Both the position numbers and the translations under genes were made by a program. From positions 65,249 to 129,248 of the forward strand of contig CALFMN010000021.1 in assembly GCA_937879875.1 (NCBI GenBank): a stretch of 64,000 bases of DNA. Direction: 5' to 3'. The notes below the pieces were generated by a model that saw nothing but the letters and a program-made list of their open reading frames with translations, made no database searches and was not told the DNA's origin. Below are positions 3,431 through 57,949 of the stretch, piece after piece. The DNA comes from an uncultured Chloroflexota bacterium. Its GTDB lineage: Bacteria; Chloroflexota; Dehalococcoidia; CAUJGQ01. Position 1 is the first letter of the stretch, and the number at the start of each line of letters is the position of its first letter.

Positions 3431-3596
3431 GGCGTCAAAACCTTACATCGTCCGAGGAGCCGCGGCCATGCCGGGCAAGGGCTATCGTAGCGTAGCCGCT
3501 GCGCGGTGTCGCGCGCGGAAGCGACCGCAACCCGGGTGCCCGCGTACGCAGCGCACGTCCGGCCCGAAGCACGCGGGGGCTGCAGCGAGCGTCGGG

Positions 3597-3836
3597 CTGG
3601 CGGGGCACCTAACCCTGCTTTGCCTGACGGCAAAGCTGTCCCTTCCCGAGACGGGAAAGGGACTTCTGGAGCGTTCCTATCGCCGTGCGACGGCGGCGGG
3701 ATCACGGTGTCGTCGCGGGACACGCGGCTGGGTTGTCTCCCGTCCGTTTGTGTGTCCTCTACCCAAACCCTTCCTGTGTCGGGAAGGGACAGGTTTGCCG
3801 TCAGGCAAAGCAGGGTTAGGTGCCCCGCCAGCCCGA
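3597..3836. repeat. MITE-like interspersed repeat, family 1 (TIR ...GGCACCTAACCCTG...; internal hairpin GTCCCTTCCCG-N-CGGGAAGGGAC), full copy A
   Basis: About 45-bp near-perfect terminal inverted repeat (cgtcgggctggcggggcacctaaccctgctttgcctgacggcaaa / reverse complement) flanking about 130 bp. The same element recurs at 48398-48640. Confidence 0.8.
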
Positions 3837-3839
3837 CGT

Positions 3840-5243
3840 TCAGACGGCGAGCCGGTTGATGCCGTCGAAGGCGGCGACTTTGTACGCTTCGGCAAGAGTG
3901 GGATAGTTGAAGACCGTATGCACGAAGTAGTCGATCGGGCCGTGGTTGGCCAGCACCGCCTGGCCGACGTGCACCAGCTCGCTCGCGCCTTCGCCGATGA
4001 TATGCACGCCCAGCAGCTCGCGCGTGTAGATGTCGAAGATCAGCTTCAACATGCCGGTGGTGTCGCCGATAATCAGGCCGCGGGCGATCTCGCGGTAGAG
4101 CGCCTTGCCGACCTCGTACGGCACGCCGGCCGCCGTCAGCTCTTCCTCGGTGCGGCCCACCATCGAAATCTCCGGAATCGTGTAGATGCCGTAGGGGAAG
4201 TGATCCGGGCTGCTGGAGAGCGGCGCGCCGAAGGCGTGACAGGCCGCCAGCCGGCCCTGCTCCGACGACGTTGAGGCGAGGCTGGGAAAGCCGGTCAGGT
4301 CGCCCACGGCGTAGATGTGCGGCACGGCCGTCTGGTACTGCTCGTTGACGGCGATGCGGCCGCGCGCATCGGCCTCAAGCCCCGCCGCCGGCAAGTTGAG
4401 CAGCGCTGTGGCGCCGTCGCGGCCCGCGCAGTAGAGCACGGCTTCGCTGCCGATCTGCTTGCCGCTGGCGGTATGGATGCGTACCGAGCCGTCCTCGGCG
4501 ATCAGGACGCTCTCGACCGTCTCGCCCAGGCGCAGCACCACGCGCTGGTTGCGCAGGTGATACTCCAGCGTCTCCACGATCTCGCGGTCGACGAAGGGCA
4601 GCAGCGTCGGCCGCGCATCGATCAGGGTTACACGCACGCCGAGCGTGGCGAAGGTCGAGGCATACTCGCAGCCGATCACGCCGGCGCCGACGACGGCCAA
4701 CGAGCGCGGAATGCGTTCCATCTGCAAAATGCCGTCGCTGTCGAGCACGCGCTTCTCATCGAAGGCGACCTGTGCGGGCCGCGCCGGCGTGGTGCCCGTG
4801 GCGATCACGACCGTTTCCGCCGTGACTTCGCGCCCGCCGCGGTGGCGCTGATCCTCGATGTGGACGGTGTGCGGATCGGAGAAGCTGGCCGTGCCGCTCA
4901 AAACTTCGATGCCGTTGCGCCGCATCTGGTGGCGAATCACGTCGGCCTCGTGCTGAATCACGTACTTGCAGCGCGAGAGCAGGTCCGCCATCGTGATCGC
5001 GTCTTTGACGGCGTAGCTGTCGCCATAGAAGCCACGCTCGCGGTAGCCGGAGAGGTAGACCGCGGCCTCGCGCAGCGTCTTGCTCGGAATCGTGCCGGTA
5101 TTGATGCAGACGCCGCCGAGGTCTTCGCTGCGCTCGACGATGCCGACGTGCTTCTGCAGCTTGGCGCCCTGCACGGCGGCGCGCTGGCCCGCCGGTCCCG
5201 TGCCGATCACCAGCAGATCGTAGTCGCAGCTTGTGGCTTCCAT
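3840..5243 (-). CDS. sthA: Soluble pyridine nucleotide transhydrogenase (SthA-like; FAD pyridine nucleotide-disulfide oxidoreductase class I)
   Basis: DYDLLVIGTGPAG Rossmann motif. C-terminal stretch IYAVGDLTGFPSLAS..QGR..A...IYTIPEISMVGRTEEELTAAGVPYEVG...FNYPTLAEAYKVAA is near-identical in pattern to SthA. Start taken at MEATS (5243) rather than ORF start 5330. Confidence 0.8.
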   Translation of the reverse strand: MEATSCDYDLLVIGTGPAGQRAAVQGAKLQKHVGIVERSEDLGGVCINTGTIPSKTLREAAVYLSGYRERGFYGDSYAVKDAITMADLLSRCKYVIQHEADVIRHQMRRNGIEVLSGTASFSDPHTVHIEDQRHRGGREVTAETVVIATGTTPARPAQVAFDEKRVLDSDGILQMERIPRSLAVVGAGVIGCEYASTFATLGVRVTLIDARPTLLPFVDREIVETLEYHLRNQRVVLRLGETVESVLIAEDGSVRIHTASGKQIGSEAVLYCAGRDGATALLNLPAAGLEADARGRIAVNEQYQTAVPHIYAVGDLTGFPSLASTSSEQGRLAACHAFGAPLSSSPDHFPYGIYTIPEISMVGRTEEELTAAGVPYEVGKALYREIARGLIIGDTTGMLKLIFDIYTRELLGVHIIGEGASELVHVGQAVLANHGPIDYFVHTVFNYPTLAEAYKVAAFDGINRLAV

Positions 5244-7215: not shown

Positions 7216-7750
7216 CATGACCCTCGTGGAGTTCATTCAGGCGGAGCTGCTGCGGCTGCACGAGCTGCTGGAGCGCGGCGTCGCCGATCTTTCGCCGCAG
7301 CAGTGGCACGCGGTGCCCGGTGGCGCCGCGGGCAAGGCGAACACGATCGCCTTCGAGCTCTGGCACTACGCGCGCACGGAAGACAACATCGTGCGCTTTA
7401 TCTTGCAAGGCCGGCCAACGGTCTGGATGGACGGCGGCTGGGCGGCGCGGCTGGGCCTGCCCGAGCGGGCGCAGGGCACCGGTATGCCGACCGACGACGC
7501 GCACGCCCTGCGCATCGCCGATCTGGACGGCTTCAAGCAGTACAGGCACGCTGTCTGGGCCAGCACCGGCGAGTATCTTGCGAACCCCGACGAAGCGACG
7601 TTCAGCCAGCCGAAGCTGGTGAAACCGCTGGGCGAGATGCCGGCGATCCGCGCCCTCGGCCAGGTCTGCATGACGCACGGCTTCACCCACCTTGGCGAGC
7701 TGGAGCTGTCGCGCACGCTGCTCGGCCTCGGCCCGGCGATCGGCATCTAA
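7216..7750 (+). CDS. DinB_2/YfiT-like (DinB superfamily) protein
   Basis: ATG at 7216. 177 aa. Paralogous (about 45% by eye) to the 23033..23608 product: shared LWHYARTEDNIVRFILQ / AWHWIRTEDNVVNFVLQ and C-terminal HG..HLGE.. motifs. Confidence 0.7.
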
Positions 7751-7751
7751 A

Positions 7752-7925
7752 CGAGACTGCGGCCCTCTATCCCCCTTCCCCTTTCTCCCAATCCTGGGAG
7801 AAAGGGGCGATCCCGGGTTAGAGCGATCCGATCTGCGAACGGCTAACCGCAAACCGATCGGATCGCCCGACGCGGGGTCGCCCCTCGCCCAGGATTGGGC
7901 GAGGGGACGGGGGTGAGGGCCGACT
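7752..7925. repeat. Interspersed palindromic repeat, family 2 (arms GGCCCTCACCCCC...CCCCTTTCTCCCAATCCTGGGAGAAAGGGGCGATCC), full copy
   Basis: Each arm is itself a hairpin (cccctttctccca/tgggagaaagggg). The two arms are inverted copies around a roughly 45-bp core. Full copies also at 30703-30880 and 57950-58125. Confidence 0.8.
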
Positions 7926-8090
7926 GCCGCGCCGCGCGCCGAAGAAGCCACGGCGATATGTCAGAAAGCGCACCGAAAGGTTCGTGCTGGTGCTTGTTAG
8001 ACGCCCTTAGGCGCTGTACCGTAAAGGCTGGCCGGCGATCGCGTCGCGCACGCGGTGGCCTGCGGGAGAGCACTCGCGACGGAGGTGCGC

Positions 8091-17459: not shown

Positions 17460-17471
17460 CGGAGGCGTTCG

Positions 17472-17525
17472 GCCCGCCCCAGGATCGTCTCCTTCGCCCA
17501 GGATTGGGCGAAGCAACGGTCTTGA
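17472..17525. repeat. Family-2 repeat, solo right arm (caggatcgtctccttcgcccaggattgggcgaag...)
   Basis: Matches the right arm of the 57950-58125 copy. Confidence 0.6.
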
Positions 17526-17718
17526 TGGTGCCGGTGCGGGGCAGCGTGTGGGGAGCGCAGCCCATGGGGCACCGCCATGCCCGCCGGTGGCCGGCGCTGC
17601 GGCGCTGGTCAGGGACGGCGCGGGGACAGCGGCGGCGGGGGCGGGAGCGCTCCGCGTTGCGGGCGCGGCCCGGCGCCGGCGTGTCCCGAATCAACCGGCC
17701 AATCGCCGTGGTCAGCTA

Positions 17719-18257
17719 TTTGAGCTGGCGGACATATTCGGCGACGGCAGCGGCGAGACTTGCGGCGACCAGGCCGTCGGCGAAGGGCTGGCGGCGGCGT
17801 TCGGCCCCCAGCTATTCCTGGACCTGGCGCCGGCGCGTGACCAACGCGGCCAACTCACGCAGCGGCCTGGTGGGCAGCGGCCGGGGCACCAGCGTCGTGG
17901 TGGCGGCGAAGGGGCGAGCACGCGGGCATCGCCGCGGTCGGTCTTGCAGAGAATCCCCTGGCTTCTGGCGAAGGCGCGGGCCTGGCGGGGATTGACGACC
18001 AGCACCGGCAGAGCCGCTGCCTGCAGCGCCAGGGCACAGGCGGCCTCATAGGCACCCACCGCCTCCAACACGATGAGGCGCGGCCGCTGTGTGGCGAGCT
18101 GCGCGACGAGGGCGGCGATGCCGTCGGCGTCGTTGGCCAGGCGCTGCGGCGTGCCTTGCCGATGGACGGCGAGGTCGAGCTGCGCCTTGCTCACGTCGAT
18201 GCCCACAGCACAGGCAGCGGTAGCGGGCGCAGGGCCGGAGGTGGGTGTGCTGGTCAT
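17719..18257 (-). mobile_element. IS110-family transposase remnant (N-terminal DEDD domain; frameshifted, internal stop, C-terminal Transposase_20 domain missing)
   Basis: CAVGIDVSKAQLDLAV...LIVLEAVGAYEAACALALQAAALPVLVVNPRQARAFARSQGILCKTDRGDARVLA is the classic IS110 N-terminus. A -1 frame continues PRPLPTRPLRELAALVTRRRQVQE* and then ERRRQPFADGLVAASL...; similarity ends at about 17719. Confidence 0.7.
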
Positions 18258-18444
18258 CGCTGGGCCTCCTGTGCCCCGACCTTGTCGATGCGGGCTCGTG
18301 GATCCGGGCAACGGTCCGGGGTTGCTGAGGAGTCAGGGGCGCCGCCCAGGCTCATCCACGGGCTGGCGGCACCGAGGGCCGAACGGGCTGACGCGCCTGC
18401 CAGCTCCCACCCTGCGGGATGAGCAAGATACAGGGGCCGAACGG

Positions 18445-24879: not shown

Positions 24880-25085
24880 CCCTGGTTTCGCACACGAAAC
24901 CTGTCCCTTTCCGACGCGGAAAGGGTTTTGGCTGCGGAGGACTCCCGACGCCAATCCTGCCTGCGCGGCAACCGAGGAGTCGCCGCGCGCCCGCAGGCCT
25001 GATCACGCGATCAGCGGTCACATGATCGAAAGGTGGAAAATCCTCCCAACGAGAAAACCCTTCCCGTGTCGGGAAGGGAGACGCG
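24880..25085. repeat. Degenerate copy of family-1 MITE (hairpin gtccctttccgacgcggaaaggg...cccttcccgtgtcgggaaggga)
   Basis: Internal hairpin modules recognisable. Outer CACCTAACCCTG termini absent. Confidence 0.5.
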
Positions 25086-25134
25086 GCGCTTTTTAGATCG
25101 CCGCTCCACGGCGATGAGGGCGCGGCGGGGTTAG

Positions 25135-25905
25135 GTGACGGTGCAGGTGGACGAGTTCGATCTGAAGGGCGAGGTTGCGCTGGTGACGGGCGGCAACGGC
25201 GGCATCGGCCGCGGTATCGCCGTCGGGCTGGCCCGGGCGGGCGCCGATATTGTGATCGCGGCGCGCGACGAGGCGAAGACGGCGGACGCCCGCGCCGAGG
25301 TCGAGGCGCTGGGCCGTCGCTGCGTCGGTGTGCGCTGCGACGTGAGCCGCCGCGCCGAGCTGCAGGCCGCGGTACAGATCGCGCGCGATGCGCTGGGCAA
25401 GCTCAGCATCGTCGTGGCGAACGCGGGCATCGCCGTGCGCGGGGCGCCGCAGTCGCTGGCGGAAGAAGATTGGCTGCGGGTGATCGGCACGAACCTGAAC
25501 GGCGTCTTCTTCGCCGCGCAGACGGCGCATCCGGCGCTTGTGGCGAACGGCGGCGGCAAGGTGATCACGATCGGCTCCGAGTACTCATTGTTCGGCAGCC
25601 CGACCGTGCCGTCGTATTCGGCCAGCAAAGGCGGCGTGGTGCAACTGACGAAGTCGCTGGCGGTGGCCTGGGCGCGGGACAACATCCAGGTCAACTGCAT
25701 CATCCCCGGCTGGGTGCGCACCGACCTGACCGCACCGGTCATGGAAGACAAAGAGAGCTACGAGCGCATCGTCGGCCGCACGCCGGCGCGCCGCTTCGCC
25801 GAGCCCGAAGAGCTGGCCGGCGCCGCCGTCTTCCTCGCCTCGCGCGCCTCGAATTTTGTGACCGGCCAGAGCCTGGTGGTGGACGGCGGCTACTCGATCG
25901 CCTGA
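25135..25905 (+). CDS. SDR family oxidoreductase
   Basis: ALVTGGNGGIGRGIA...NAG...S..Y.ASK. GTG start at 25135. Confidence 0.85.
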   Translation: MTVQVDEFDLKGEVALVTGGNGGIGRGIAVGLARAGADIVIAARDEAKTADARAEVEALGRRCVGVRCDVSRRAELQAAVQIARDALGKLSIVVANAGIAVRGAPQSLAEEDWLRVIGTNLNGVFFAAQTAHPALVANGGGKVITIGSEYSLFGSPTVPSYSASKGGVVQLTKSLAVAWARDNIQVNCIIPGWVRTDLTAPVMEDKESYERIVGRTPARRFAEPEELAGAAVFLASRASNFVTGQSLVVDGGYSIA

Positions 25906-25990
25906 ACGTTGCCAGCGCCGCGCTGTGCTGGCTATGCTCGCGCTGGCACAAGATCATTCGGAGCCGTTCCCTGCGCCGTGAGGCCGCGCG

Positions 25991-28807
25991 ATGGCCGAAC
26001 TGCCGACTGGCACGCTCACCTTTCTCTTCACCGACGTGGAGGGCAGCACGCGCCTGTGGGAGCGGCACCCGCAGGCGATGCGCCGGATCATGGCCCGTCA
26101 CGACGCGCTGCTGACCCAATGCTTCGAACAACACAAAGGTGTCGTCGTGCGCCCGCGTGGGGAGGGCGACTCGCTGTTCGCCGTCTTCATGCGGGCGAGC
26201 GATGCCGTCACCGCGGCACTCGAAGGGCAGCGCGTGCTGCTTACAGAGGATTGGGGCGCGATCGGGCCGCTGCGGGTGCGCATGGGCTTGCACACGGGCG
26301 AGGCGGACCTGCGCGCGGGGGACTACTACGGCAGCGCCGTGAATCGCTGCGCCCGCATCCGCGCCGCCGGCCACGGCGGCCAGGTGCTGCTCTCCGAGGC
26401 GACGGCGAAGCTCGTGCGCGAAACGCTGCCGGACGGCGCAACGCTGCTGGACCTCGGCCGGCACCGGCTGCGCGACCTGAGCGAGCCAGAGCAACTGTTC
26501 CAACTCATTGCCGCAGACCTCCCCGGCACGTTTCCACCGCTGAAGACGTTGGAGAGCCGGCCCAACAACCTGCCGCTGCAGCTCACCAGCTTCGTCGGTC
26601 GCGGGCGCGAGCTGGCCGAGCTTGCAAGCCTGCTGAAAACGGCGCGTTTGGTGACGCTCACTGGCCCCGGCGGCACCGGCAAAACGCGGTTGGCGCTGCA
26701 CGTCGCCGCTGGGCTGCTGGACGGCTTCTCCGATGGCGTGTTCTTTGTGGACCTGGCGTCGCTGCAGGATCCGGCGCTCGTGCCCGCGGCGGTCGCCCAG
26801 GCCCTCGGTGTCCAGGGCCTGCCGGAGGTGTCGGCCCGCGAGAGCGTGCTGCGCTTCCTCCGGGACAAACAGGTGCTGCTCGTGCTGGACAACTACGAGC
26901 ACCTGTTGGCAGCGGCTGAATTCGCAGCGGCGCTGCTTCAGGCGGCGCCGGCGGTGCGCCTCCTCGTGACGAGCCGCGCGCCGCTGCGGGTGACCGGCGA
27001 GCGGGAATATGCGGTTGCGCCCTTGCTGGCGCCGCAGGAGCGCGTGCACTCGGCAGCGGAGCTGGCGCAGAATCCGGCAGTGCAACTCTTCGTGCAGCGG
27101 GCACAGGCCGTGCGAGCCGACTTCGCGCTGAGCGATGCAAACGCCTCGACCGTGGCGGCCACCTGCGCACGGCTGGACGGCTTGCCGCTGGCGCTCGAAC
27201 TGGCGGCGGCGCGGATGCGTGCGTTGCCAGTGGCAGCGCTGCTGGCGCGATTGGAGCAGCGCTTGCCGATCTTGACGGGCGGCGCACGGGACGTGCCGGC
27301 GCGCCAGCAGACGTTGCGGGACGCGATCGCCTGGAGCTACGCCCTGCTTGAGCCGGCGGAGCAGCGCTTGTTCCGACGGGTTGGCGTGTTTGCCGGCGGC
27401 TGTACGCTGGCGTTGGCGGAGGCCGTCTGCACCGCCGACGGCGACCTCGGCCTCGACGTGCTGGACGGCGTCGGTTCGCTGGTGGAGAAGAGCCTGCTGC
27501 GCGAAGTCGACGGCCAGGCGGGAGAGCCCCGCTACCGCATGTTGGAGACCATCCGCGAGTTTGCCCTCGGGGAGCTTGAGGCCCATGGCGAAGCGGAGGC
27601 TGTACGGCGGCACCTGGCGGTGCAGGTGTTACAGCTGGTCCGACAGGCCGCCGTGGCGGGTGCCCAGGAGCGCCTGGACGTCGACCTGGATAATGCCCGG
27701 ACCGTGCTGGGGTGGTGCGTCGAACACATGGAGTTGGCGGTGGGGGTGCGATTGTTCTGGGCGTTGCGCTGGTATCTGCACTACCGTGGACTCGGAAAGG
27801 AGCTCAACCTGTGGCGCCAGCGCCTCCTCGCCCTGCCGGACGCCTCGGCGCCGAGCGTTTCTCGGGCGCGGCTGCTTGGAATCACGCTGTTTGACCCGCT
27901 CTCCCTCGCCGAACAGGAGCGCGCGGTGCTTGAGCTCGAGGAAGCCATTGGCCTCAGTCGTGCCCTGGGCGACGCGTCCTGCCTCGCCGATGCGCTCCAA
28001 CACCTTGCGGTGCTGCGGATGAGTCAGGGCCGGTTTGACGCGCTGGTGCCGCCGGCAGAAGAAGCGCTCCCGCTGTATCTCGCAGCGGGAGCGCCACAGG
28101 CCGCTGCCTCTATGCAGCTCTTCCTGGTTCATGCCGCGCTTTCCCGCGGCGATATCGCCACCGCAGAAGCGCTGGTCGCGGCCAATCGGGCGCTCGAGGG
28201 CACGAAACGCTCGTCGCCCGGCCTATCAGCGGAGTCCGCGCTCGCAGAGGCGCACGGCGACCATGGGCGGGCGCGGGTGTTCCTGGAGGAGTCGGCTCGA
28301 GCGGCGGCCGCGTTACAGGGGGAGCAGAGCCCTGACAGACTGGCCCGCCTCGCCATGCTCGTGCAGGTCACCCTGCGCCAAGGGGACACGCGGGGCGCGG
28401 TGGCACGCTGCACCGAGAGTCTCGCCGTGGAACGCCGTGTGGGGCCCTCGCGCTTTCTGGCGGCGGTCTTGACGGTGCTCGCCCAGGCGGCGGAGCGCTG
28501 TGGCCGGCTGCCCGCCAGCGCACGGCTGTTGGCCGCCGTCGACGGGCAACGGCGAACGTTCGCCGTGGAGGTGCCGGGCGTGCAGGAGGCGCAGCAGGCG
28601 GCGGTGGCGCGGGTGCGGGTCGCGCTGGGCGAGGCGGCGTTCGCCGAAGCGTGGGCGGTGGGCGAGGCGCTTGCTCCGGAGGAAGCCATCGAGCTTGGCC
28701 TGGCTGTTGCCGGGGAGCTGGCGGCCGGCCCAGCGGCCCTCATCCTCACCCCCGTCCCCTCTCCTTCTCCCAATCCTGGAGAGAAGGAAAGGGGCGATCC
28801 GGCGTGA
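25991..28807 (+). CDS. Signal-transduction protein: class III adenylate/guanylate cyclase domain + STAND (NB-ARC/AAA) NTPase + TPR-like repeats
   Basis: N-terminus LTFLFTDVEGSTRLWE...GDS.FAVF...R.G.HTGE (CHD cyclase). Walker A GPGGTGKTRLAL. hhhhDN Walker B (LLVLDNYEH). Helical repeat C-terminus. The last about 20 codons are encoded by a family-2 repeat. Confidence 0.85.
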   Translation: MAELPTGTLTFLFTDVEGSTRLWERHPQAMRRIMARHDALLTQCFEQHKGVVVRPRGEGDSLFAVFMRASDAVTAALEGQRVLLTEDWGAIGPLRVRMGLHTGEADLRAGDYYGSAVNRCARIRAAGHGGQVLLSEATAKLVRETLPDGATLLDLGRHRLRDLSEPEQLFQLIAADLPGTFPPLKTLESRPNNLPLQLTSFVGRGRELAELASLLKTARLVTLTGPGGTGKTRLALHVAAGLLDGFSDGVFFVDLASLQDPALVPAAVAQALGVQGLPEVSARESVLRFLRDKQVLLVLDNYEHLLAAAEFAAALLQAAPAVRLLVTSRAPLRVTGEREYAVAPLLAPQERVHSAAELAQNPAVQLFVQRAQAVRADFALSDANASTVAATCARLDGLPLALELAAARMRALPVAALLARLEQRLPILTGGARDVPARQQTLRDAIAWSYALLEPAEQRLFRRVGVFAGGCTLALAEAVCTADGDLGLDVLDGVGSLVEKSLLREVDGQAGEPRYRMLETIREFALGELEAHGEAEAVRRHLAVQVLQLVRQAAVAGAQERLDVDLDNARTVLGWCVEHMELAVGVRLFWALRWYLHYRGLGKELNLWRQRLLALPDASAPSVSRARLLGITLFDPLSLAEQERAVLELEEAIGLSRALGDASCLADALQHLAVLRMSQGRFDALVPPAEEALPLYLAAGAPQAAASMQLFLVHAALSRGDIATAEALVAANRALEGTKRSSPGLSAESALAEAHGDHGRARVFLEESARAAAALQGEQSPDRLARLAMLVQVTLRQGDTRGAVARCTESLAVERRVGPSRFLAAVLTVLAQAAERCGRLPASARLLAAVDGQRRTFAVEVPGVQEAQQAAVARVRVALGEAAFAEAWAVGEALAPEEAIELGLAVAGELAAGPAALILTPVPSPSPNPGEKERGDPA
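28742..28805. repeat. Family-2 repeat, solo hairpin arm (cccgtcccctctccttctcccaatcctggagagaaggaaaggggcgatcc)
   Basis: Overlaps the 3' end of CDS 25991..28807. Confidence 0.6.
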
Positions 28808-28974
28808 AGCGTTCCGGAGGGCGTCGGGCCAGCAATCGCCTGTAGGGGCGCACGGCGTGCGCCCTTCGCGGCCAAAGCCGCGCCCAACGGCGCGCCGGAT
28901 AACCCGGTGCTCTTGTGGATCGCCGCAACGCCAACCATCTCCATCAACCTGCTAACCCGGCGCCCTTTCGGATC

Positions 28975-29040
28975 GCTTCATGCCGGATCGCCCCTTTCCC
29001 TCCAGAATTGGGGGAAAGGGGACGGGGGATGGAGGGCCAG
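28975..29040. repeat. Family-2 repeat, solo arm in opposite orientation (gatcgcccctttccctccagaattgggggaaaggggacgggggatggagggcc)
   Basis: Lies upstream of the 29083 start. With 28742-28805 it brackets about 170 bp. Confidence 0.6.
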
Positions 29041-29082
29041 CCGCGCTATGATGGCGCTGCGTTTCTGCTCAGGAGCTACGCC

Positions 29083-30690
29083 ATGACGACGCTGCACACC
29101 ACCAGCCGCACGCTACCGCGGTTCACGTTGCAGGACGGCGAGGGCCGCGAGCGCCGCTTCCCCAGCGGCCGCCATGCCCTGCTCTGCTTCGTGAAAGAGG
29201 ACTGTCCCACCTGCCGTCTCTCGATGCCGCTGGTCGAGGCGGCGCACCGCGCCTTCGGCGAGGCGCTCGACATCTGGGCGATCGGCCAGGACGAAGCGGG
29301 CAACGCGAAGCTGGTGGACGAGTTCGGCCTCAGCGTCCCCATGCTGGACGACACGGCGCTGAAGGTTTCGTACGCCTACGACCTCGACACCGTGCCCACG
29401 GTGATCCTTGCGGACGGCAGCGGCGCCGAACAGCGGCACTTCGTCGGCTTCGATAAGGCCGACTGGCTGGATCTGGTGCGCGCGCTGGCGCGGCTGGCGG
29501 GCGGCGCGGCGCCGGCGGTCGATTGGGCGTCCTATCCCGAGTCGCGGCCGGGCTGCGGCTCGAAGTCGGTCGAGCCGGGCATCGCCGAGCGGCTGGCGGC
29601 GGAGGCCGAGGGCAGCCCGCTGCGGGCGCGGCGCATCGAGGTCGGCGAGGGCGACGACGTTTTCGAGTTCATGTTCGACCAGGGGCTGACGGACGGCCTG
29701 CCCGTGGTGCCGCCCACACCGGAGCGGGTGCTGCGTATGCTGCACGGCACACGGCGCGATCCGCAGGAGGTTGTAGCCGTGGTGCCGCCGAACATGGCGC
29801 CGGCCACGGTCGAGAAGGTCGCGGCCAACGCGGTGCTGGCCGGCTGCAAGCCCGCGTACCTGCCTGTCGTGATCGCCGCGCTTGAGGCCGTCTGCACCGA
29901 TACATTCAACATCCACGGCGTGAACGCCACGACCTGGGCAGCCAGCCCGGTGATCGTCGTCAACGGCCCGATCCGCGACCGCATCGGCATGAACTACGGG
30001 CTGATGGCGCTGGGCTACGGCAACCGCGCCAACGCCACGATCGGCCGCGCGCTGAAGCTGTGCATCCGCAACCTCGGCGGCGCCAGGCCGGGCGGCGTCG
30101 AACGCTCGGTGCTCGGCTCGCCGGGCAAATACACGATGTGCTTCGCCGAGCACGAGGCGCGCAGCCCCTGGCAGCCGCTGCACGTGGAGCGCGGCTTCCG
30201 CCCGGAACAGAGCGTGGTCACCGTCTTCGGCCTCGAAGTCTCGCCCCGCCACATCGCCGACCAGACCTCGCGCACGGCGCGGCAGCTCGGCGGCAGCCTC
30301 GGCCTGGGCCTTGAGGCGTGCTGGCTGCCGAAGGCGCACGGCCAGGGCGATGTGCTGCTCGTCGTCTGCCCCGAACACGTTGATACGCTCTGGCGCGACC
30401 GCTGGACCAAAGCGCAACTGCGCGAGCGCATTCAGGAGATCACGTCGCGGCCCGTGCGCGAGCTGCTGGCGGACGACGAAAGCGGCGAAGGCATTCCCCG
30501 CTCACGCTTCGGTCCGGGTGGTCCGAGCGAGGAGGAGCTAAACCGGCGCATTCCCAAGTTCCGCTCGCCGGAGAACATCCACATCGTCGTGGCCGGCGGC
30601 GAGGGCGGCAAGTTCTCCTCGGTTTTCGCCGGCTGGGTCAGCGGCCCGACAGGTTCGTCCTCCGTCAGCCGCGTGATCGAAGAGGTGTGA
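29083..30690 (+). CDS. Fusion protein: N-terminal thioredoxin-fold (redoxin/AhpC-TSA-like, CPTC active site) + about 400-aa uncharacterised C-terminal domain
   Basis: AGGAGC RBS 7 nt before ATG 29083. ...ALLCFVKEDCPTCRLSMP...DIWAIGQDE...VPTVILADG typical of a TlpA/ResA-like Trx fold. The C-terminal domain (HGVNATTWAASPVIVVNGP...GNRANATIGRALKLC) was not recognised. Confidence 0.7.
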   Translation: MTTLHTTSRTLPRFTLQDGEGRERRFPSGRHALLCFVKEDCPTCRLSMPLVEAAHRAFGEALDIWAIGQDEAGNAKLVDEFGLSVPMLDDTALKVSYAYDLDTVPTVILADGSGAEQRHFVGFDKADWLDLVRALARLAGGAAPAVDWASYPESRPGCGSKSVEPGIAERLAAEAEGSPLRARRIEVGEGDDVFEFMFDQGLTDGLPVVPPTPERVLRMLHGTRRDPQEVVAVVPPNMAPATVEKVAANAVLAGCKPAYLPVVIAALEAVCTDTFNIHGVNATTWAASPVIVVNGPIRDRIGMNYGLMALGYGNRANATIGRALKLCIRNLGGARPGGVERSVLGSPGKYTMCFAEHEARSPWQPLHVERGFRPEQSVVTVFGLEVSPRHIADQTSRTARQLGGSLGLGLEACWLPKAHGQGDVLLVVCPEHVDTLWRDRWTKAQLRERIQEITSRPVRELLADDESGEGIPRSRFGPGGPSEEELNRRIPKFRSPENIHIVVAGGEGGKFSSVFAGWVSGPTGSSSVSRVIEEV

Positions 30691-30702
30691 GTGCGGCCGG
30701 CG

Positions 30703-30880
30703 CGCTCGGCCCTCTATCCCCCTACCCCTTTCCCCCAATCCTGGAGGGAAAGGGGCGATCCTGGGTTGGAGCGATCCGATACTGGGCAGGGTTAACCGTG
30801 CCGGCCACGGAACGCCCGACCCAAGATCGCCCCTCGCCCAGGATTGGGAGAGGGGAAGGGGGTGAGGGCCGACGCCCGCG
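30703..30880. repeat. Family-2 palindromic repeat, full copy
   Basis: ggccctctatccccctacccctttcccccaatcctggagggaaaggggcgatcc ...core... gatcgcccctcgcccaggattgggagaggggaagggggtgagggcc. Confidence 0.8.
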
Positions 30881-30962
30881 CACGCCCCAGCATTTCGCCG
30901 TACACTAAGGCCGGTCCGCGCATAGTCGTGCGCCGGGCGCCAGCAGCCAGCGGGAGGATAGG

Positions 30963-31481
30963 ATGACGACCCTCATCGACCCCACGGACGAACGTGTGCC
31001 CATTCGCCGGCAGCTCACGCGCCGGCCGGAGGCGATCACCGGCACGGTCGCGTTGCTGGACATCAGCAAGCCGCGCGGCGACGTGCTGATCGCGGAGCTG
31101 GAGGCGCGCCTTGCCGAGCGGCTGCCCGCGGTCACAATCAAGCGCTACAAGAAGCCAACCTTCACCAAGCCGGCGCCCGACGAACTGCGCCGCGAGATCG
31201 CGCAGGAGGCGGACTTCGTCATCGAAGCCCTTGCCGATTGAGGGTCATGCACGACGTGCAGTGTGCACGACACGGTGTGGTTCGAAATCCAGGGCAAGCC
31301 GAGCGTCTTCGTCGCCTCCAACGTCTTCGTCACCGCCGCCGAGGCACAGTCCGCCGCGCTGGGGCTGCCGGACGTGCGGCGCATCTTCGTCCCGCACCCG
31401 ATCCAGGACGCGGCCGACGACGAAATGCGTGCGAAAGCCGACGCGATCGTGGACGAGGTCATCGCCGCGCTGGTGGACTGA
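30963..31481 (+). CDS. UGSC-family selenoprotein (in-frame TGA at 31239-31241 read as selenocysteine)
   Basis: GGAGG RBS before ATG 30963. ORFs 30963..31241 and 31263..31481 are in the same frame. Read-through gives ...FVIEALAD-U-GSC-TTCSVHDTVWFEIQGK..., matching the eponymous U-G-S-C motif. Small palindromes (cgtgca/tgcacg) lie 10-30 nt downstream of the UGA. Confidence 0.75.
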
Positions 31482-31498
31482 AGGCGGGCCGCCGGCCC

Positions 31499-31576
31499 TC
31501 ATCGTCTCCTTCCTCCTTCCTCCAATCCGCCGGAAGGAGACGATCATGCACCGTGCGTTCCGAGCACCCGACGGTT
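31499..31576 (+). promoter_or_regulatory. 13-bp perfect stem-loop sequestering an AAGGAGA-N6-ATG, followed by a 10-codon mini-ORF (MHRAFRAPDG*)
   Basis: Left arm atcgtctccttcc (31501-31513) pairs with right arm ggaaggagacgat (31532-31544). The right arm contains a Shine-Dalgarno sequence and ATG 31546. Lies 17 nt after the selenoprotein stop. Confidence 0.4.
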
Positions 31577-32026
31577 AACCCGGCTCGGTCCGAGTGGTGC
31601 TCCCCACGATCGCTCCGTGCCCGTGGTCTAATATTACCGTGACCGTTTAGTATCACGGGCAGCGCGGCGGCGGATCTGGCCTCGGCGGGCGATCGCCTGG
31701 TGCCGGCGGCGCCAACGCGACCACGCGATCACGGTGCTGGGCGGATGCCCGGCGGCGAAGCGGTTCAGCAGCCGGCGGAGTTCCGCGACACGGAGCGGCA
31801 CGCGGTCGTCGCCTGGGCCCCCTGTTTGCCCGGGCGGTTTCGACGGCCCGGCGCGCCGGCGTCATCTGCCGGTGCCAGCCCCGCCAGGCGCGTCCCTCGG
31901 CCTGATCGAGCCCGACCTGCCCCTGCGCCAGCGTCAAGCAGTCCGCGCTGCGCGTGCGCGGGCCGGCCACGCGCACGATGGCGGTCAGCCCCCTCTCGTC
32001 GGGGGCGTAGACGAGCGAGGAGGTAG

Positions 32027-33090
32027 TCACGGCGCGATTGCGGGATAGAGATGCTGCAAGCGAATGCGGGCAGCGGCGGTGGTGAAGCGCCAGCGGATGG
32101 CGGTGGTGCCGGCGTTGCGCTCGGCCTCCCAGGCGGCGACCTCAGCGGTGAGCGTGTCGGCATCGGCGATGCGCCGGTCCAGGCACTGGCGGCTGAGGAT
32201 GCTGCACTCAATCTCGGCCATGTTCAGCCACGACCCGTGCGGCGGCGTGTGATGCAGCTCCAGCTTATCCAGCAGGCGCGTGGCCTCGGCCGGTGGGAAG
32301 GCCTGGTACAGCGCCGCCCCACTATGCGTGTTCAGGTTGTCCAGCACCAGCACGAGGCGCTCGGCCTCGGGGTAGTGGACCTCGACCAGGTCTTTGATGA
32401 CGTGGGCGCAGTCGACCGCCGTGCGCCGCGCGGTGACCGTCACGTGCCGCCAACCGGCAAGCGGCTCACAGACCACAAAGAGGTTGGCCACGCCGTTGCG
32501 CACGTCCTCATCGTCCTCGCGGGCGGGCTGGCCCGGCTGGACCGGGCGTGGGGGCTGGACCGCGCCCACCAGGTGCTTGCTGGTCTCGTCCAGACAGACC
32601 TGCGGACGCCGGGGATCCTGGGGCCGGTGATAGACATCCAGCACGTCCTCCAGCTGGCAGACCAAGGCGGCACTGCCCTGCGGCGGCAGGCACCAGCGCG
32701 TGTCTGCCAGGGCTTCAGCACGTTGTTTTGCGCGTGCGCCGTACGGTTTCGTACGCGATCGCCTCGACGAGGTTGAGTTCGACCAGGCGCTGGGCGACCA
32801 GGCGCAAGGTCCAGCCCCTCCTCCACGAAGCGGCGGCGCACGCGCTCGACGGTGTCGCTGCTCACACCGGCGGTGGCGGCGATCGCGGCGTCGAAGCGGC
32901 CGGACTGCCCGGGCGGCGCATCGGCCAGCAGCAGGATGCGGGCGTGCTGGAGCGTGCGGGCGGCATGCGTGCCGCTGTGCAGGAACTGCTGCAGATGCTC
33001 CCGCTCAGCAGAGGTGAGGGTGACACGATAGCGTTTCGTTCGCATGCGCCCAGCATGCCAGCGCCTTACCATAACGGGCAAGGCGGCCGT
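32027..33090 (-). mobile_element. IS630-family insertion sequence (copy 1); transposase broken into N-terminal HTH and C-terminal DDE ORFs by frameshifts
   Basis: N-terminus MRTKRYRVTLTSAEREHLQQF...VSSDTVERVRRRFVEEGLD (IS630 HTH). C-terminus ...DETSKHL...LVLVLDNLNTHS...HHTPPHGSWLNMAEIECSIL...LYP (DDE domain, ORF 32027..32665). At least two frame changes in between. Confidence 0.75.
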
Positions 33091-33094
33091 GATG

Positions 33095-34200
33095 GGGTAC
33101 TAAGCAGGTAGCCCTCGTTATGGTACGTTCGCGGCATGCGCCGCACGACGTTGAGCGACGAGGCACGGGCCGCGCTCCAGGCGGCCCGCCACGACTCTGG
33201 CTGGAGTCCGCGGGAGCGCGACCGGGTGGCGATGGTGCTGCTGTCGGCGGCGGGCTGGTCGCCACCGCGCATCGCCGGGCACTTCGGCTGTTCGGTGCAG
33301 CCAGTGCGTACGGCGCTCGACCAGTACGCGGCCAGCGGCCTGGACGGGTTGCGCCACCGGCGGCCCGGCCCGCCGCCCAACGCCGCGCGACGCACGCAGG
33401 TGACGGCAGCGTTGACGGCGCTGCTGGAGCAAGACCGTAGCTGGACGGCGGCGCAGCTGGCAGCCGCGCTCGACGAGCAGGACATCCGGCTCAGCACGCG
33501 CCAGACGCGCACGTAGCTGGGCGGGATCGCCGCCTGGCGGCGCACCGTGCGCACCCTGGCGCACAACCAGGCCCCGGTCAAGGTCGCCCGGGCCGAGCGG
33601 CACCTTGGGGTGCTGCAAAAACAGGGGGCGCCGGCCGGGCCACGCTCTGCGATCGCGACGGTTGTGGCGTCAGCCCCAGCCAGCCGGTGAATTACCGTTG
33701 GACGCTGGTCGGGCAGCGCAAAGCCGTGCCCGACGAGAACCCCTGTGGGCGGCGCCTGCACGTGCTGGCGGCGCTGGTGTGCGACGGTCCCCATCCCAGC
33801 CTGACCTGGGACATGCAGCCACGCACGCTGCGGGCCAGCGACCTGCGCGCCTTCCTGCCCGGCATCCCCCGCCAGCCGGACACGCCGCTGGTCGTGGTGC
33901 TGGACAACGCCGGCAGGCAGCGCCGCAAGGCCGGGCAAGCAGCCGTGCCCGCGCTGTGGCGCCAGGGGCATCTATCTCTACTACCTGCCGCCCTCCAGTC
34001 CGCAGCTCAACGCGCTTGCGCGCGTCTTCGGCGTGATCAAGCCGTACGACCTACCCGAACGACGCTATGCCACCGATACCGCCCTGGAGGAGGCACTCGA
34101 TGCCGCCTTTACCCGCTACGAAACCCGACTCCTCGCGAAAACGACCCCACAACCGGGGCTAGCTGCTTAGGCTGTAAACTGGACGAGGGGCTTTCGGCCC
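33095..34200 (+). mobile_element. IS630-family insertion sequence (copy 2, distinct member), transposase interrupted by in-frame TAG (33514) and TGA (33690) plus frameshift
   Basis: MRRTTLSDEARAALQ...GWSPPRIAGHFGCSVQPVRTALDQYAASGLDGL (HTH). Later ...LVVVLDNAGRQRRK... and, in another frame, ...YLYYLPPSSPQLNALARVFGVIK...TRYE. Head-to-head with copy 1. Confidence 0.7.
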
Positions 34201-34226
34201 CATTATCCGAACCGATCCTCAAAAGA

Positions 34227-34349
34227 TGACTACAGTGCCTGGCGTCTTTGCTGCCGGCGACATCACGCGTTCCGCCCACAATGCGACCTGGGCAAGCGCC
34301 GATGGCGTCACTGCCGGCATGGCCCTGCACCGCTCGCTGGTCTTCTGAT
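34227..34349 (+). pseudogene. C-terminal 40-aa fragment of an FAD-dependent pyridine nucleotide-disulfide oxidoreductase (thioredoxin-reductase-like)
   Basis: MTTVPGVFAAGDITRSAHNATWASADGVTAGMALHRSLVF* is the canonical C-terminal GD-FAD motif. No N-terminal part remains; it is directly flanked by IS630 copy 2. Confidence 0.5.
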
Positions 34350-34700
34350 CAGTACCCCACCCAATTGCGGGATTCCCATCAACCGGTGGAAGGCGCCGGC
34401 CGAGGATTGGCTGCGCGACCTCTACGAGAAGCGCCAGCGCAAGGCGGCGCGGACCTCGCGCGGGCGATCGCCGCCTTCGGCAATAGCGGCGGCACGCCGC
34501 TGCTCGGGACCGGCGACGATGGAGCGGTTCCCGGCCTGTAGTATGCCCAGCCAACTCACATCACGCGCCCTGAGAGCCCTGCACGCGCGCCCGACACGCG
34601 AACGCGCGCTGTTGAAGCCGTCGCACTTGGAGTATTGTGACCTCGAAGCAGCCGCGCGTCGGCGGCGGTGCGATGCCGGTTCACGAGAGAGGTGAGGCAG

Positions 34701-35843
34701 ATGGCGCAGATCTACTACTCCTGCGATTCGCATGTGGTGGAGGCGGCCGAGGTCTACGACGGCCTCGTGGACCGCTTCGGCGATCGGGCGCCGCGCATCG
34801 TCGACGGCGTCAACGGCCGCGAGGGCGTCTATCTCTACTGGCCGAAGCTCAACCGGCCGATCCTCGTTGGCCGCCTGGGCATCGCCGGCAGCCGCCTCGA
34901 CAACCCGGAAACGCACGAGCGCATGAAGCACGGCTGGGACAACCTCAATCCCGGCGTCAAAGACCCGGTGGCGCGGCTCAAGGAGCAGCAGGTCGATGGC
35001 ATCGTGGGCGAGGTGATGTACCCGAGCCTGAACATGTTCACCTTCGCCGTGCCCGATCGCGAGGTCGCGCAGGCGGTGATGCAGCGCCACAACGACTGGA
35101 TCCGCGACTACTGCTCGCACGCGCCGGAACGGCTGATCGGCGTCGCCTGCCTGCCGCTGCCGGACGTGGACGAGGCGATCGCCGAGCTGTACCGCTGTGC
35201 GAAGATGGGCATCCGCGGCGTCGCCATCCCCTGCACGGCCCCCGTCGCCAAACCGTACAAAGATCCGGCCTACGAGCCGTTCTGGGCGGCGGCGGAAGAG
35301 GTCGGCCTGCCGATCACGATGCACATCTTCTGCGGCGCCGAGTGGGGCATGAGTCTGCCCGACTACTGGGATCCAATCGTCAGCTATACGCTCTCCCATG
35401 CCGGCATCTGGAATACGGTCAGCAACCTGATCACCTCCGGCGTCGCCGAACGGCATCCGAAGCTGCGCTTCATCTGCGCCGAGTGGGAGACGGGCTGGCT
35501 GGGGCACGTGCTCAAGCGCTTCGACCACGCGATCTACCGCAGCCGCGCCGACGCCTCGCCCGACCTGCAGATGCACGGCAGCGAGTACTTCAAGCGACAG
35601 TTCTTCGCCACGTTTGAAGACGACGACATCGGCGTGGAGACGCGCCACTCGATCGGCGTGGACCGGCTGCTGTGGGGCAACGACTATCCGCACCACGACT
35701 CGATCTGGCCGCGCTCGCAGGAGATCCTGCGCGAGATCATGGCCGGCGTGCCGGACGACGAGCGCGACGCGATGGTCTGGAAGAACGTGCAGCAGCTCTA
35801 CGCGATCGACGAGTCGAAGCTGCCGGTGGGCGCGGCGGTGTAG
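34701..35843 (+). CDS. Amidohydrolase-2 family metal-dependent hydrolase/decarboxylase (ACMSD-like)
   Basis: MAQIYYSCDSHVVE N-terminal metal-binding HxH-like start. ...WGNDYPHHDSIWP... C-terminal Asp/His motif. RBS GAGGTGAGG before ATG 34701. Confidence 0.85.
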   Translation: MAQIYYSCDSHVVEAAEVYDGLVDRFGDRAPRIVDGVNGREGVYLYWPKLNRPILVGRLGIAGSRLDNPETHERMKHGWDNLNPGVKDPVARLKEQQVDGIVGEVMYPSLNMFTFAVPDREVAQAVMQRHNDWIRDYCSHAPERLIGVACLPLPDVDEAIAELYRCAKMGIRGVAIPCTAPVAKPYKDPAYEPFWAAAEEVGLPITMHIFCGAEWGMSLPDYWDPIVSYTLSHAGIWNTVSNLITSGVAERHPKLRFICAEWETGWLGHVLKRFDHAIYRSRADASPDLQMHGSEYFKRQFFATFEDDDIGVETRHSIGVDRLLWGNDYPHHDSIWPRSQEILREIMAGVPDDERDAMVWKNVQQLYAIDESKLPVGAAV

Positions 35844-35879
35844 TCGGCCCTGGTATTGGAAGCCTCCGGCGGTTGCGCT

Positions 35880-35935
35880 GTGCTCTGGCCCCGACCCCTC
35901 CCTCTCCCAATCCTGGAGAGAGGGAGGGGAGCTTG
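35880..35935. repeat. Family-2 repeat, solo hairpin (cccctccctctcccaatcctggagagagggagggg)
   Basis: Perfect hairpin of the family-2 type. Confidence 0.6.
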
Positions 35936-36241
35936 AACGCTGGTGGGATGGAGGCTGGGGCGGAGTGCGGAGGCCGCTCGCGGGCGCACCACTGTGTGCC
36001 CCTACGATCTGCGAACCAGTCACGCCGCCAGGTGCAACGCCCCGCACTTCGACAAATGTCCGGCTGAGACTACCGAGAATAGCTTGTCCGTCCCGACCCC
36101 CTTCGAATCCGGCACCAACTTGCTCGCTCCAGGCGCTCACGCGCGGCCTGCCTGCTTTACGATGGCCCAGACGGCGTCGTTGCCTGACTGAGGTACGACT
36201 GCGCCGAGCTTCCCCTGAAGGAGACGGCCACGAGGACGTCA

Positions 36242-37057
36242 GATGCGAGCAGTCCGATAAAGACGGAATATGCGCTTGACAATGCCTGGCAGGGGGCACG
36301 TGAGCGCCTCCGGCTGCTGGAGGAGACCCAGGATCCGGGCACTCTCCGCCACCTGGACGCGCTGGGCGTAGCGAGTGGCTGGCGCTGTCTTGAGGTGGGT
36401 GGCGGCGGTGGCTCGATTGCGACCTGGCTCTGCCAGCGGGTTGGGCCGACTGGCCGGGTGGTGGCGACCGATATCGACACACGCTTCCTTGAGGCGCTGG
36501 ATTTCTCCAACCTTGAGGTCCGCCAACAGAACATTGTCACCGACGCCGTCGAGGAGGCCGGCTTCGACCTCGTCCACGCCCGCGCCGTGCTCATGCACCT
36601 CCCGGAGCGGCAGCGCGCGCTGGATCGGCTGGTGGCGGCCCTGAAGCCAGGGGGCTGGTTGCTCCTTGAGGAGGGTGAATATATTTCGCACGCGCTGCCT
36701 GACCCACGGATTGATGCGGCGGCGGGCGAACTGCTGGCGAAGCACAAGCGCGCGCTGGATATCGGCGGGGCGACGAGCGGCATCGACTTTTACTACGGGC
36801 GGCGGCTCTTCGGGGACCTGCTTGCCCGGGGCATCGCCGACATCGGGTCAGAAGGTCGGCTGGAGATGGTGCGCGGCGGCAGTACTCCAGCGAAGTTTTT
36901 GCAGCGTACTGGGCAGCAGACGCGACAGCAGCCTCAAGCGAGTGCACACATGTCTGAAACTGAGCGCGACGCGTTTCTCACTCTGCTCGATGACCCTGCC
37001 TTGCTCTATCTGGGTCCTATCTTGATGGCCGTGTGGGGTCGGAAACCACTCGGGTAG
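36242..37057 (+). CDS. Class I SAM-dependent methyltransferase lacking a canonical start codon (possible pseudogene/5' truncation)
   Basis: Frame open from stop at 36190. Conserved N-terminal region ...ERLRLLEETQDP...GWRCLEVGGGGGSIATWL...VVATDID... lies upstream of the first ATG/GTG/TTG (GTG 36395, inside SAM motif I). Confidence 0.55.
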   Translation, partial: DASSPIKTEYALDNAWQGARERLRLLEETQDPGTLRHLDALGVASGWRCLEVGGGGGSIATWLCQRVGPTGRVVATDIDTRFLEALDFSNLEVRQQNIVTDAVEEAGFDLVHARAVLMHLPERQRALDRLVAALKPGGWLLLEEGEYISHALPDPRIDAAAGELLAKHKRALDIGGATSGIDFYYGRRLFGDLLARGIADIGSEGRLEMVRGGSTPAKFLQRTGQQTRQQPQASAHMSETERDAFLTLLDDPALLYLGPILMAVWGRKPLG

Positions 37058-44128: not shown

Positions 44129-44575
44129 GAAGCTTCCTCCTCGGCGGTCGTGCCACCGCCGCCATGGCCCGACAGCGGCTGAACAGACCGTGAGGAGGTC
44201 TGCGCCTTCGGCAACCCGGCTGCCTGTGCCGTTCCGCTGGCGTGCCGCCAGGGAAACGACCGAAGGCCCGTGGCTTTGCGTCCCCGCCTTTCGGCGGGTT
44301 TGCCTTTGTCGGACGTTCTGTAAAGCGACCCGGCAGCCGGTGCTACCTGTGGTCCAGGTGCAGTAATCGCGTGGCCGCGGGTGCTGCAAGAGGGTTGCCG
44401 GACAGTGGTGGGCCGGGCGTTACTGAAATGTTACAACCGGCAAACGGACCATCGGCCCGCCGGCAGAGGTCTTCCGCGGACAAACGAATCGGCCCGAAGC
44501 CCGGTGACGGGCTTCGGGCCGGCGCCGTTGCCAGCGTTACGGCGAGAGCAGGTCCGTGGAGAGGGCGCTGGCCTG

Positions 44576-47500: not shown

Positions 47501-47773
47501 CTTGTCGATCTCGTCATCCTGGTCATTCAGGTGACGGCCGCGACCCCTGTCAAGCTCCTTGGAGCCGAAGTTCGTCGTGCCGGGCTTGAGATTCTCGTCG
47601 TGAATCGGGTTGGACTCGTTGTGCGGCTTGAGCTGGGGCGCTGGGCCGGAACCCGGGGTACCGGCGGCTACCTGACTGCTGCCCGAAGCGCCGGCAAAGG
47701 CGATGCCAACGGCGATCAAGCAGAACAGGAGTCCGAGGGCATGAACAGGCCGGAGTCGCGCAAAGATCTTCAC
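44576..47773 (-). CDS. Large secreted multidomain protein: signal peptide, about 500-aa N-terminal domain (possibly DmfA2/N,N-dimethylformamidase-large-subunit-like), then 3 tandem about 165-aa modules separated by Pro/Thr linkers
   Basis: GTG 47773 preceded by GAGGTG. Signal peptide [28 protein letters not shown]-terminal domain carries [13 protein letters not shown]. Modules share ..DD...GW.NSSWNA..N.ANTSPVH.GT.SIS....AAWGALY... Linkers [10 protein letters not shown] / [10 protein letters not shown] / (PTPS)n. Confidence 0.8.
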
Positions 47774-48397: not shown

Positions 48398-48640
48398 AGC
48401 TTGCGAGGCACCTAACCCTGACTTCCCTTGCGGGAAGTCTGTCCCTTCCCGAGGCGGGAAAGGGACTTTTGGAGCGCTCCCGACAACGCCGGACGGCGGC
48501 GGGGTCTGGGTGTCCCTGTGGGACACGCGGCGGGCTGGCCTCCCAGCCCTATGTGCGTCCTCGAACCCCACCCTTCCCGGCTCGGGAAGGGACAGACCTG
48601 GCTTCAGCCAGGTCAGGGTTAGGTGCCGCGCGCGGCGAAC
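48398..48640. repeat. MITE-like interspersed repeat, family 1, full copy B
   Basis: Starts cacctaaccctga and ends tcagggttaggtgcc. The internal sequence aligns with copy A (3597-3836), including hairpins gtcccttcccgaggcgggaaagggac and cccttcccggctcgggaaggg. Confidence 0.8.
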
Positions 48641-50085: not shown

Positions 50086-50097
50086 TCTGCAGCGCGG

Positions 50098-57930: not shown

Positions 57931-57949
57931 GGCGGGCGATCCGCGGCGT

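Follow-up and report, generated by a model that had tools for sequence, protein, structure and literature searches.

Family 2, a high-copy palindromic intergenic repeat probably of the REP/BIME type in uncultured Chloroflexota

The DNA studied here (a 64-kb stretch, hereafter the window) contains several copies of a repeat, family 2, which we interpret, with a probability of about 0.7, as a lineage-specific, high-copy family of non-coding palindromic repeats of about 185 bp, i.e., as DNA of the REP/BIME/REPIN type that moves or recombines without being autonomous, in an uncultured high-GC lineage of Chloroflexota. The kind of system is ordinary, a REPIN/BIME-like or MITE-like palindromic intergenic repeat, and the family is new; it is apparently undescribed, as full-text literature searches revealed no earlier account of it in Chloroflexi. 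A REP/BIME-type nature had been proposed in a preliminary description of the window, and the architecture agrees with it: imperfect hairpins, inverted and mostly unlike pairs, high copy number, location at gene 3' ends and no target-site duplication. Since its hairpins are imperfect, its arms are paired with unlike partners and the target is not duplicated, family 2 resembles REP/BIME/REPIN more closely than DDE-type MITEs.

Copies and structure of the family 2 unit

A profile built from the arms revealed four full and three partial copies of family 2 in the window, one of them next to a transposase remnant:

7749–7933, plus strand: full copy c1, core 7761–7921, left arm of type C and right arm of type A; the TAA stop (7748–7750) of a Pfam-confirmed DinB_2-domain gene lies 10 nt before it and a MarR gene (8055) downstream
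17464–17513, plus strand: degenerate, internally deleted copy, its left terminus GGCGTTCGGCCC joined to the inner portion of a type-B arm that breaks off after GGGCGAAG; an SDR (short-chain dehydrogenase) gene ends with its TAG stop 4 nt before the copy, and an IS110 remnant adjoins
17712–18311, minus strand: truncated IS110-family transposase with the DEDD_Tnp_IS110 domain only, adjoining the truncated arm
28722–29050, minus strand: full copy c4, core 28735–29038 (304 bp), centre enlarged by nested DNA
30696–30882, plus strand: full copy c2, core 30708–30870, arms C-A; it starts 17 nt past the TGA (30688–30690) of an AhpC/TSA-domain gene, and a UGSC gene (30963) follows 92 nt on
31494–~31610, minus strand: partial copy that lacks the right arm and consists of a degenerate left arm of type B plus the centre (…GACGGTTAACCCGG…); the TGA (31479–31481) of a second UGSC gene lies 12 nt before its start
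35846–35929, minus strand: half element with the terminus GGCCCTG, a module of about 36 nt in reverse orientation and an arm hairpin at 35895–35929; the terminus lies 2 nt past the TAG stop (35841–35843) of an amidohydrolase gene
57941–58180, plus strand: full copy c3, core 57952–58169, arms A-B, nested inserts in both arms; it starts 21 nt after the TGA stop (57928–57930) of an enoyl-CoA hydratase gene

All three full copies of the preliminary description are real, and the sequence at 7752–7925 agrees with it, but the third ends at 58169 rather than 58125, because its right arm holds a 38-nt nested insert, and a fourth (28735–29038) had been missed. What had been recorded as single arms at 28742–28805 and 28975–29040 are actually the two ends of this fourth copy, whose core reaches 304 bp owing to further DNA nested in the middle, among it a GTAG-type REP. 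The remaining single arms were found again as the partial copies at 17464–17513 and 35846–35929, and the one at 31494–~31610 has to be added to them. The loop motif CCAGGATTGGG occurs nine times in the window (with at most one mismatch) against 0.85 expected by chance, and a longer arm pattern five times against none expected.

In most copies the core, GGCCCTC…GAGGGCC, is 160–163 bp long. Conservation extends for about 10 nt outside it (GAnnGCCgCG) and is at background level beyond, so that the whole unit measures about 185 bp. It forms a single long imperfect palindrome with the centre GGTTAACC and the conserved termini cGCGGCnnTC-GGCCCTCA…TGAGGGCC-GAnnGCCGCg, in which the terminal inverted repeats (GGCCCTCA/TGAGGGCC) are invariant and the outer 10 nt or so conserved. 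GATC is enriched only about 2-fold. Each arm contains a nested hairpin with a stem of 11–15 bp, where CCCA/TGGG closes an ATCC loop. These hairpins had been called perfect; the 30-mer quoted for them was found only once (7778–7807), even with three mismatches, and the other arms carry variants with a conserved mismatch or a 1-nt bulge. Nor did the suggested cruciform of hairpins hold up, the minimum-energy fold of the single strand being one long hairpin in which the left arm is paired with the right arm. For copy c2 this fold has an energy of -140.7 kcal/mol (z = -11.7), and the two strands of an A-B copy gave -104 and -112 kcal/mol.

By sequence, at least three types of arm can be distinguished, in which the hairpin is kept by paired changes. 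Type A has the sequence CCCCTC(T/G)CCCA… and usually a conserved T·C mismatch, type B has the sequence GTCTCCTTCTCCCA… and type C the sequence CCCCTTTCCCCCA… with a 1-nt bulge. The 276 arms compared comprised 175 distinct variants with a mean of 14 bp paired. Among 69 bulge-free arms, nine of the 15 stem pairs showed changes on both sides (at one pair, for example, 33 arms have C-G and 32 have U-A), and the covariation score of the stem was 0.272 against 0.168 in shuffles, none of 500 shuffles scoring as high. The percentage paired is inflated in these 69 arms, which had been pre-selected for at least 11 of 13 pairs. When copies were oriented by their slightly asymmetric centre, most of them proved to combine unlike arms (A-B, 23 copies; C-A, 16; A-A, 6; C-B, 5).

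Family 2 is not confined to the window; confinement had been named in the preliminary description as an outcome that would speak against it. The tight arm pattern was found in at least 115 further loci on metagenome contigs from at least seven datasets. Applied to the matches listed (1.07 Mb) together with the window, the arm profile detected 254 arms, which make up 87 full copies at 85 distinct sites and about 70 solo arms. One full copy is present in an unselected 10.8-kb locus. Extrapolation from about 83 kb of unselected sequence gives a density of about 85 copies per Mb, roughly one per 10 kb or about 1.6% of the DNA. A loose pattern (18 specified bases with a variable gap) matched genome contigs 82 times; 81 of these matches are due to chance, and the sole real, diverged copy belongs to a Chloroflexi groundwater MAG (L082). 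Viral contigs searched for the arm pattern and for the module of about 36 nt contained no copies.

As regards the hosts, the related loci have a G+C content of 63–73%. The 938-aa cyclase-STAND protein, whose gene ends inside copy c4, is encoded without any difference on JGI metagenome contigs (samples 3300007982 and 3300022557), and its named homologues come from "Dehalococcoidia bacterium" or Chloroflexota MAGs.

Position relative to genes and the C-terminus of the cyclase-STAND protein

All seven copies of the window overlap a stop codon or start at most 21 nt from one. In the wider set the core edge and the nearest stop codon are mostly 3–40 nt apart. The gene contexts there were established with our own crude codon-usage gene finder, which missed the DinB_2-domain gene before c1, and were distributed as follows:

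Between tandem genes: 27 copies, 492 background spacers
Between convergent genes: 24 copies, 140 background spacers
Between divergent genes: 9 copies, 127 background spacers

The distribution of copies differs from that of the background spacers (chi-square p = 8e-5), with a 2.2-fold enrichment between convergent genes. The only copy that lies 'inside a gene' may be a gene-calling artefact. The elements pointed in the direction of transcription in 15 cases and against it in 12, and their orientation showed no link to transcription, GC skew or gene-strand majority; therefore, they lack the strand signature of single-strand transposition.

An ORF extends with its 3' end into the element in five or six of 63 copies. 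A case in the window is the gene of the 938-aa cyclase-STAND protein (25991–28807), whose translation terminates in …LAVAGELAAGPAALILTPVPSPSPNPGEKERGDPA*:

28733–28807, plus strand: element-encoded tail AALILTPVPSPSPNPGEKERGDPA and stop codon, at the end of the cyclase-STAND gene

As the core of c4 begins at 28735 and the stop codon extends to 28807, the last 24 codons and the stop consist of element sequence, in accordance with the earlier proposal that an arm supplies the end of this protein (estimated then at about 20 codons). The tail is also absent from homologues. Nine of them (53–74% identity) could be aligned up to …L(A/T)V(A/V)(A/G)(E/Q)L, after which they have short unrelated tails or end immediately; in the 938-aa protein the alignment ends at …LAVAGEL. 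That the insertion has replaced the original end of the protein is a sound but indirect conclusion from these alignments. The two closest homologues fetched were considered as orthologues without the insertion and set aside; they are not syntenic with the 938-aa locus and are therefore paralogues. On the other side of c4, the far arm end was measured at 44 nt before the ATG (29083) of the Trx-fusion gene, close to the 40 bp given before. For annotators of uncultured soil and groundwater genomes, family 2 explains odd proline/serine-rich C-terminal tails as well as mis-called starts and stops beside intergenic repeats, and likely assembly breaks.

Copies would persist past stop codons because such sites tolerate insertion, and an insertion that overlaps the stop codon would give the gene a new element-encoded tail, as seen in the cyclase protein. 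Read-through transcripts would have at their end a highly stable stem of about 85 bp, which, on the model of REP, ERIC and Correia elements, could block 3' exonucleases or attract RNase III. By the same analogy, family 2 may play the role of a terminator or mRNA stabiliser.

Such a role could also be the main reason why the repeat is maintained, i.e., family 2 could be a 3'-end RNA module selected by the host, which would terminate or insulate in both directions between convergent genes, or stabilise mRNA, in a lineage with few T-run terminators. The tight association with stop codons and the enrichment between convergent genes agree with this, as do the symmetric structure, which folds well on both strands, and the paired changes that keep the hairpins. 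Canonical terminator-like sites, moreover, occur only at chance frequency across the 11.5 kb scanned (25000–36500). However, the four copies within this region contain no T-run terminator-like site, their stems being followed by GC-rich sequence, and some copies lie in divergent spacers. The position past stop codons is equally explained by purifying selection that leaves insertions at tolerated sites, and upkeep of the hairpins is equally expected if a transposase recognises them. We therefore consider a host-selected module rather unlikely as the primary explanation.

A multi-copy family of structured non-coding RNA genes, or a cis-regulatory RNA, seems highly improbable. It is true that the predicted structure is strong and that the apical and loop sequences are conserved, but no Rfam family matched the elements at the gathering score (all element-level scores were far under threshold), promoter-like sites were not detected in the four copies at 25000–36500 and the orientation to genes is random. 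Besides, no compensatory pairs were found in the consensus long-range fold, and about 85 copies per Mb is a density typical of repeats and not of RNA genes. The sole Rfam match of the window is a c-di-GMP-I-GGC riboswitch at 44206–44313 (minus strand; 78 bits against a gathering score of 59). It lies in the 5' end of the longest minus-strand ORF there (42578–44389), which probably starts in reality downstream of the riboswitch. The neighbouring 1070-aa ORF (44576–47788) contains 12/18-nt periodic repeats and three to four internal repeats of about 500 bp.

Insertion sites, nested repeats and the search for a mobilising enzyme

Comparison with shuffled flanks revealed no excess of direct repeats around the copies (offsets 0–21, lengths 2–8), that is, no target-site duplication. 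It was also considered that the outer repeat could be a pre-existing palindromic target. This was rejected: spacers show no excess of CGCGGC…GCCGCG pairs, and GCGGCnnTC-GAnnGCCGC does not occur as an empty site; therefore, the outer repeat is part of the element.

Related contigs differ in the occupancy of sites. One site of this kind lies in the window:

50086–50097, no strand assigned: unoccupied site, a 12-nt spacer between convergent genes, where a full copy is present in the related contig L150

Similarly, contig L104 is occupied where L092 has no element. The flanks of such contigs are 75–92% identical. Clean junctions are lacking in these presence/absence comparisons, as the spacers around the sites have diverged too, and the attempt to use them as clean empty sites was given up, this divergence being too great to read exact insertion points; occupancy differences could be explained by deletion or gene conversion. 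At two orthologous intergenic sites (L106 448–624 and L189 9847–10030; L168 1909–2092 and L184 9144–9361) the copies have differing arm types and centres, which suggests re-insertion at the same site or gene conversion.

A further feature of family 2, and its least ordinary one, is the presence of nested inserts in the hairpin loops. In the window, inserts within family 2 copies are located as follows:

28842–28864, plus strand: GTAG-tagged REP GTAGGGGCGCACGGCGTGCGCCC, nested in the centre of c4
57980–58012, plus strand: mini-hairpin (…GATCGCGCGGAGCGCGAT…) inside the loop of the left-arm hairpin of c3
58115–58152, plus strand: module of about 36 nt (CCAGAGCGTAGCGCAACCGTCGGAGAC…), which takes the place of the 3' half of the right-arm stem of c3

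GTAG-tagged REPs (TGTAGGGGCGCACGGCGTGCGCCC, often with a second small hairpin next to them) were observed in or beside family 2 copies, in the window at 28842–28864 (plus strand) and about 35972–35998 (minus strand) and at about ten more sites in the other loci. REPs of the GTAG type are those usually linked to a RAYT transposase. The mini-hairpin (…GATCGCGCG-GAG-CGCGATC…) sits in the ATCC loop of arm hairpins not only in c3 but also in L149 (about 480–520), L146, L165, L096 and L116. The module of about 36 nt (GGgGCCAGAGCGCAGCGCAACCGTCGGAGACTTcca…) substitutes the 3' half of stems in type-B arms of family 2 and in family 1 hairpins, and is found beside GTAG REPs. Apart from 58115–58152 (plus strand) and 35853–35889 (minus strand) in the window, it occurs at 41 sites in L087–L197 (e.g., L113 3382; L110 8364/8395). 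It is sometimes tandemly duplicated with a 31-nt period, and in L093 (about 7186) and L116 (about 1713) it stands directly before the start codon of an ordinary gene, with shared sequence up to the ATG. Searches with this module gave no Rfam match and no viral match.

It should be mentioned that the window contains another repeat of the same design. Copies of this family 1 are located at 3587–3841 and 48393–48631, with fragments near 24897–24938 and 25058–25078. Its 74-nt arms are 93% complementary and separated by 107 nt; each holds two nested hairpins, whose stems vary among copies yet remain paired. The hairpin at 25078–25058 (minus strand) is followed by a T-run and has a terminator-like score.

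Two further copies are interrupted at their centre. In L147 (686–1507) a family 2 copy is split at its centre, with the TAACCG motif kept in both halves, and the halves flank about 630 bp with a small ORF (cupin-like by eye), the 36-nt module and a GTAG REP. In L100 (10732–12105) the central TTAA of a family 2 copy has received, with a TA duplication, an IS630-family element whose DDE_3 and HTH ORFs seem to be frameshifted. This element was considered as a parent of family 2 and rejected; its own, different inverted repeats and the TA duplication at TTAA indicate a guest. The rare central TTAA of family 2 is a landing site in a GC-rich genome. In the window, the IS110 remnant (17514–18330, N-terminal DEDD domain only) abuts a family 2 arm cut inside the stem at 17513; REP hairpins are known targets of IS110/IS1111 elements in other organisms.

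No gene for a mobilising enzyme was detected in a sample of 1.1 Mb comprising parts of several genomes. Its six reading frames contained no RAYT (REP-associated tyrosine transposase) or Y1/HUH motif, tblastn with an approximate sequence of the IS200 TnpA gave no match, and no parent IS with family 2 termini was found. Between arms lie ordinary genes (sortase, HxlR, luciferase-like, methyltransferase).

These results bear on the view of family 2 as a classical MITE, i.e., an internally deleted derivative of an IS with a DDE transposase, moved via its terminal inverted repeats. Both the size of about 185 bp and the terminal inverted repeats with their outer bases would suit a MITE, and so would the full-length hairpin fold and the presence/absence of copies among relatives. 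Nevertheless, we regard this origin as unlikely: a target-site duplication is absent at any offset, the 1.1 Mb contain no parent IS, the lone IS630-family element between arms having different ends, and in its unlike arm pairs and conserved stem mismatches family 2 is closer to REPs.

For a REP/BIME/REPIN-type repeat, in contrast, the most likely mobiliser would be a trans-acting, hairpin-recognising enzyme that causes no duplication, putatively of the HUH/Y1 type, e.g., a RAYT. Copies would have spread to, or been exchanged at, short spacers just past stop codons without duplication of the target. In a bolder reading, family 2 would belong to a layered group of repeats inserting into one another's hairpin loops, and these could be traces of an unrecognised hairpin-directed insertion or exchange in Dehalococcoidia-like Chloroflexota that works without duplication, RAYT or DDE enzyme. 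This reading is prompted by the 36-nt module replacing stem halves, the mini-hairpins sitting in arm loops and the sites re-occupied by other arm types, and we offer it with strong reservations. For the biology of mobile DNA, family 2 adds, from the Chloroflexota, a repeat that is built of hairpins and free of duplications and for which the sampled DNA yielded no transposase; its nested insertions in hairpin loops are natural material for studying how such repeats move.

Comparison with known repeat systems

Among the known systems, the REP/BIME/REPIN elements of E. coli and Pseudomonas have much in common with family 2. Both consist of imperfect hairpins with a conserved mismatch or bulge, and both form inverted pairs that fold into a larger hairpin around a conserved linker, the partners being mostly unlike in the manner of the Y and Z REPs of BIMEs. 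Both number hundreds of copies, which follow genes or separate convergent ones, and neither duplicates its target site. However, the unit of family 2 is larger, with arms of about 60 nt and a centre of about 60 nt against 20–40 nt in REPs. Its arms lack GTAG and carry CGTC, TGTC or CTTC, separate GTAG REPs being present in the same genomes; no RAYT gene was detected beside any sampled copy, and the host belongs to the Chloroflexota.

ERIC/IRU, Correia (CREE/NEMIS) and RUP elements are likewise imperfect palindromes over their whole length of 100–200 bp, co-transcribed with their neighbours; their transcripts are predicted to fold into long hairpins able to alter the fate of mRNA. Correia and ERIC elements duplicate a TA target, whereas family 2 is without a duplication and has several types of nested arm hairpins. 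With the Rickettsia palindromic elements (RPE) it shares translation of a palindromic repeat as part of host proteins; RPEs, however, are found in frame inside genes, while family 2 replaces only 3' ends, in about 9% of copies.

REPs tagged with CGTC or TGTC are likewise not known to have a dedicated transposase (Di Nocera et al., 2013; PMC3733652). They have an unpaired tag, stems of 8–9 bp that start with A/T pairs, loops of 4–5 nt and a CCA tail, and the class has not been reported from Chloroflexi (PMC3733652). Family 2 differs from them in its GC-rich stems of 11–15 bp, in the absence of a CCA tail and in a 'tag' that can partly pair. It is similar in that the tag lies directly 5' of the stem (CGTC in type A and most of type C, TGTC in type B), head-to-head pairs of often unlike partners are the rule and the loop has 4 nt.

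A parallel within the same phylum is provided by the GTAG-23 REPs of Thermomicrobium roseum, which are flanked by the small palindromes CCGSSCC(n3-4)GGSSCGG (PMC3733652). These palindromes also stand unoccupied in hundreds of copies (PMC3733652), whereas unoccupied versions of the family 2 termini are absent. In both cases, nevertheless, a short GC palindrome brackets the repeat (compare the outer CCGCGGC…GCCGCGG of family 2), and GTAG REPs occur in the organism of the window as well, nested inside family 2 copies.
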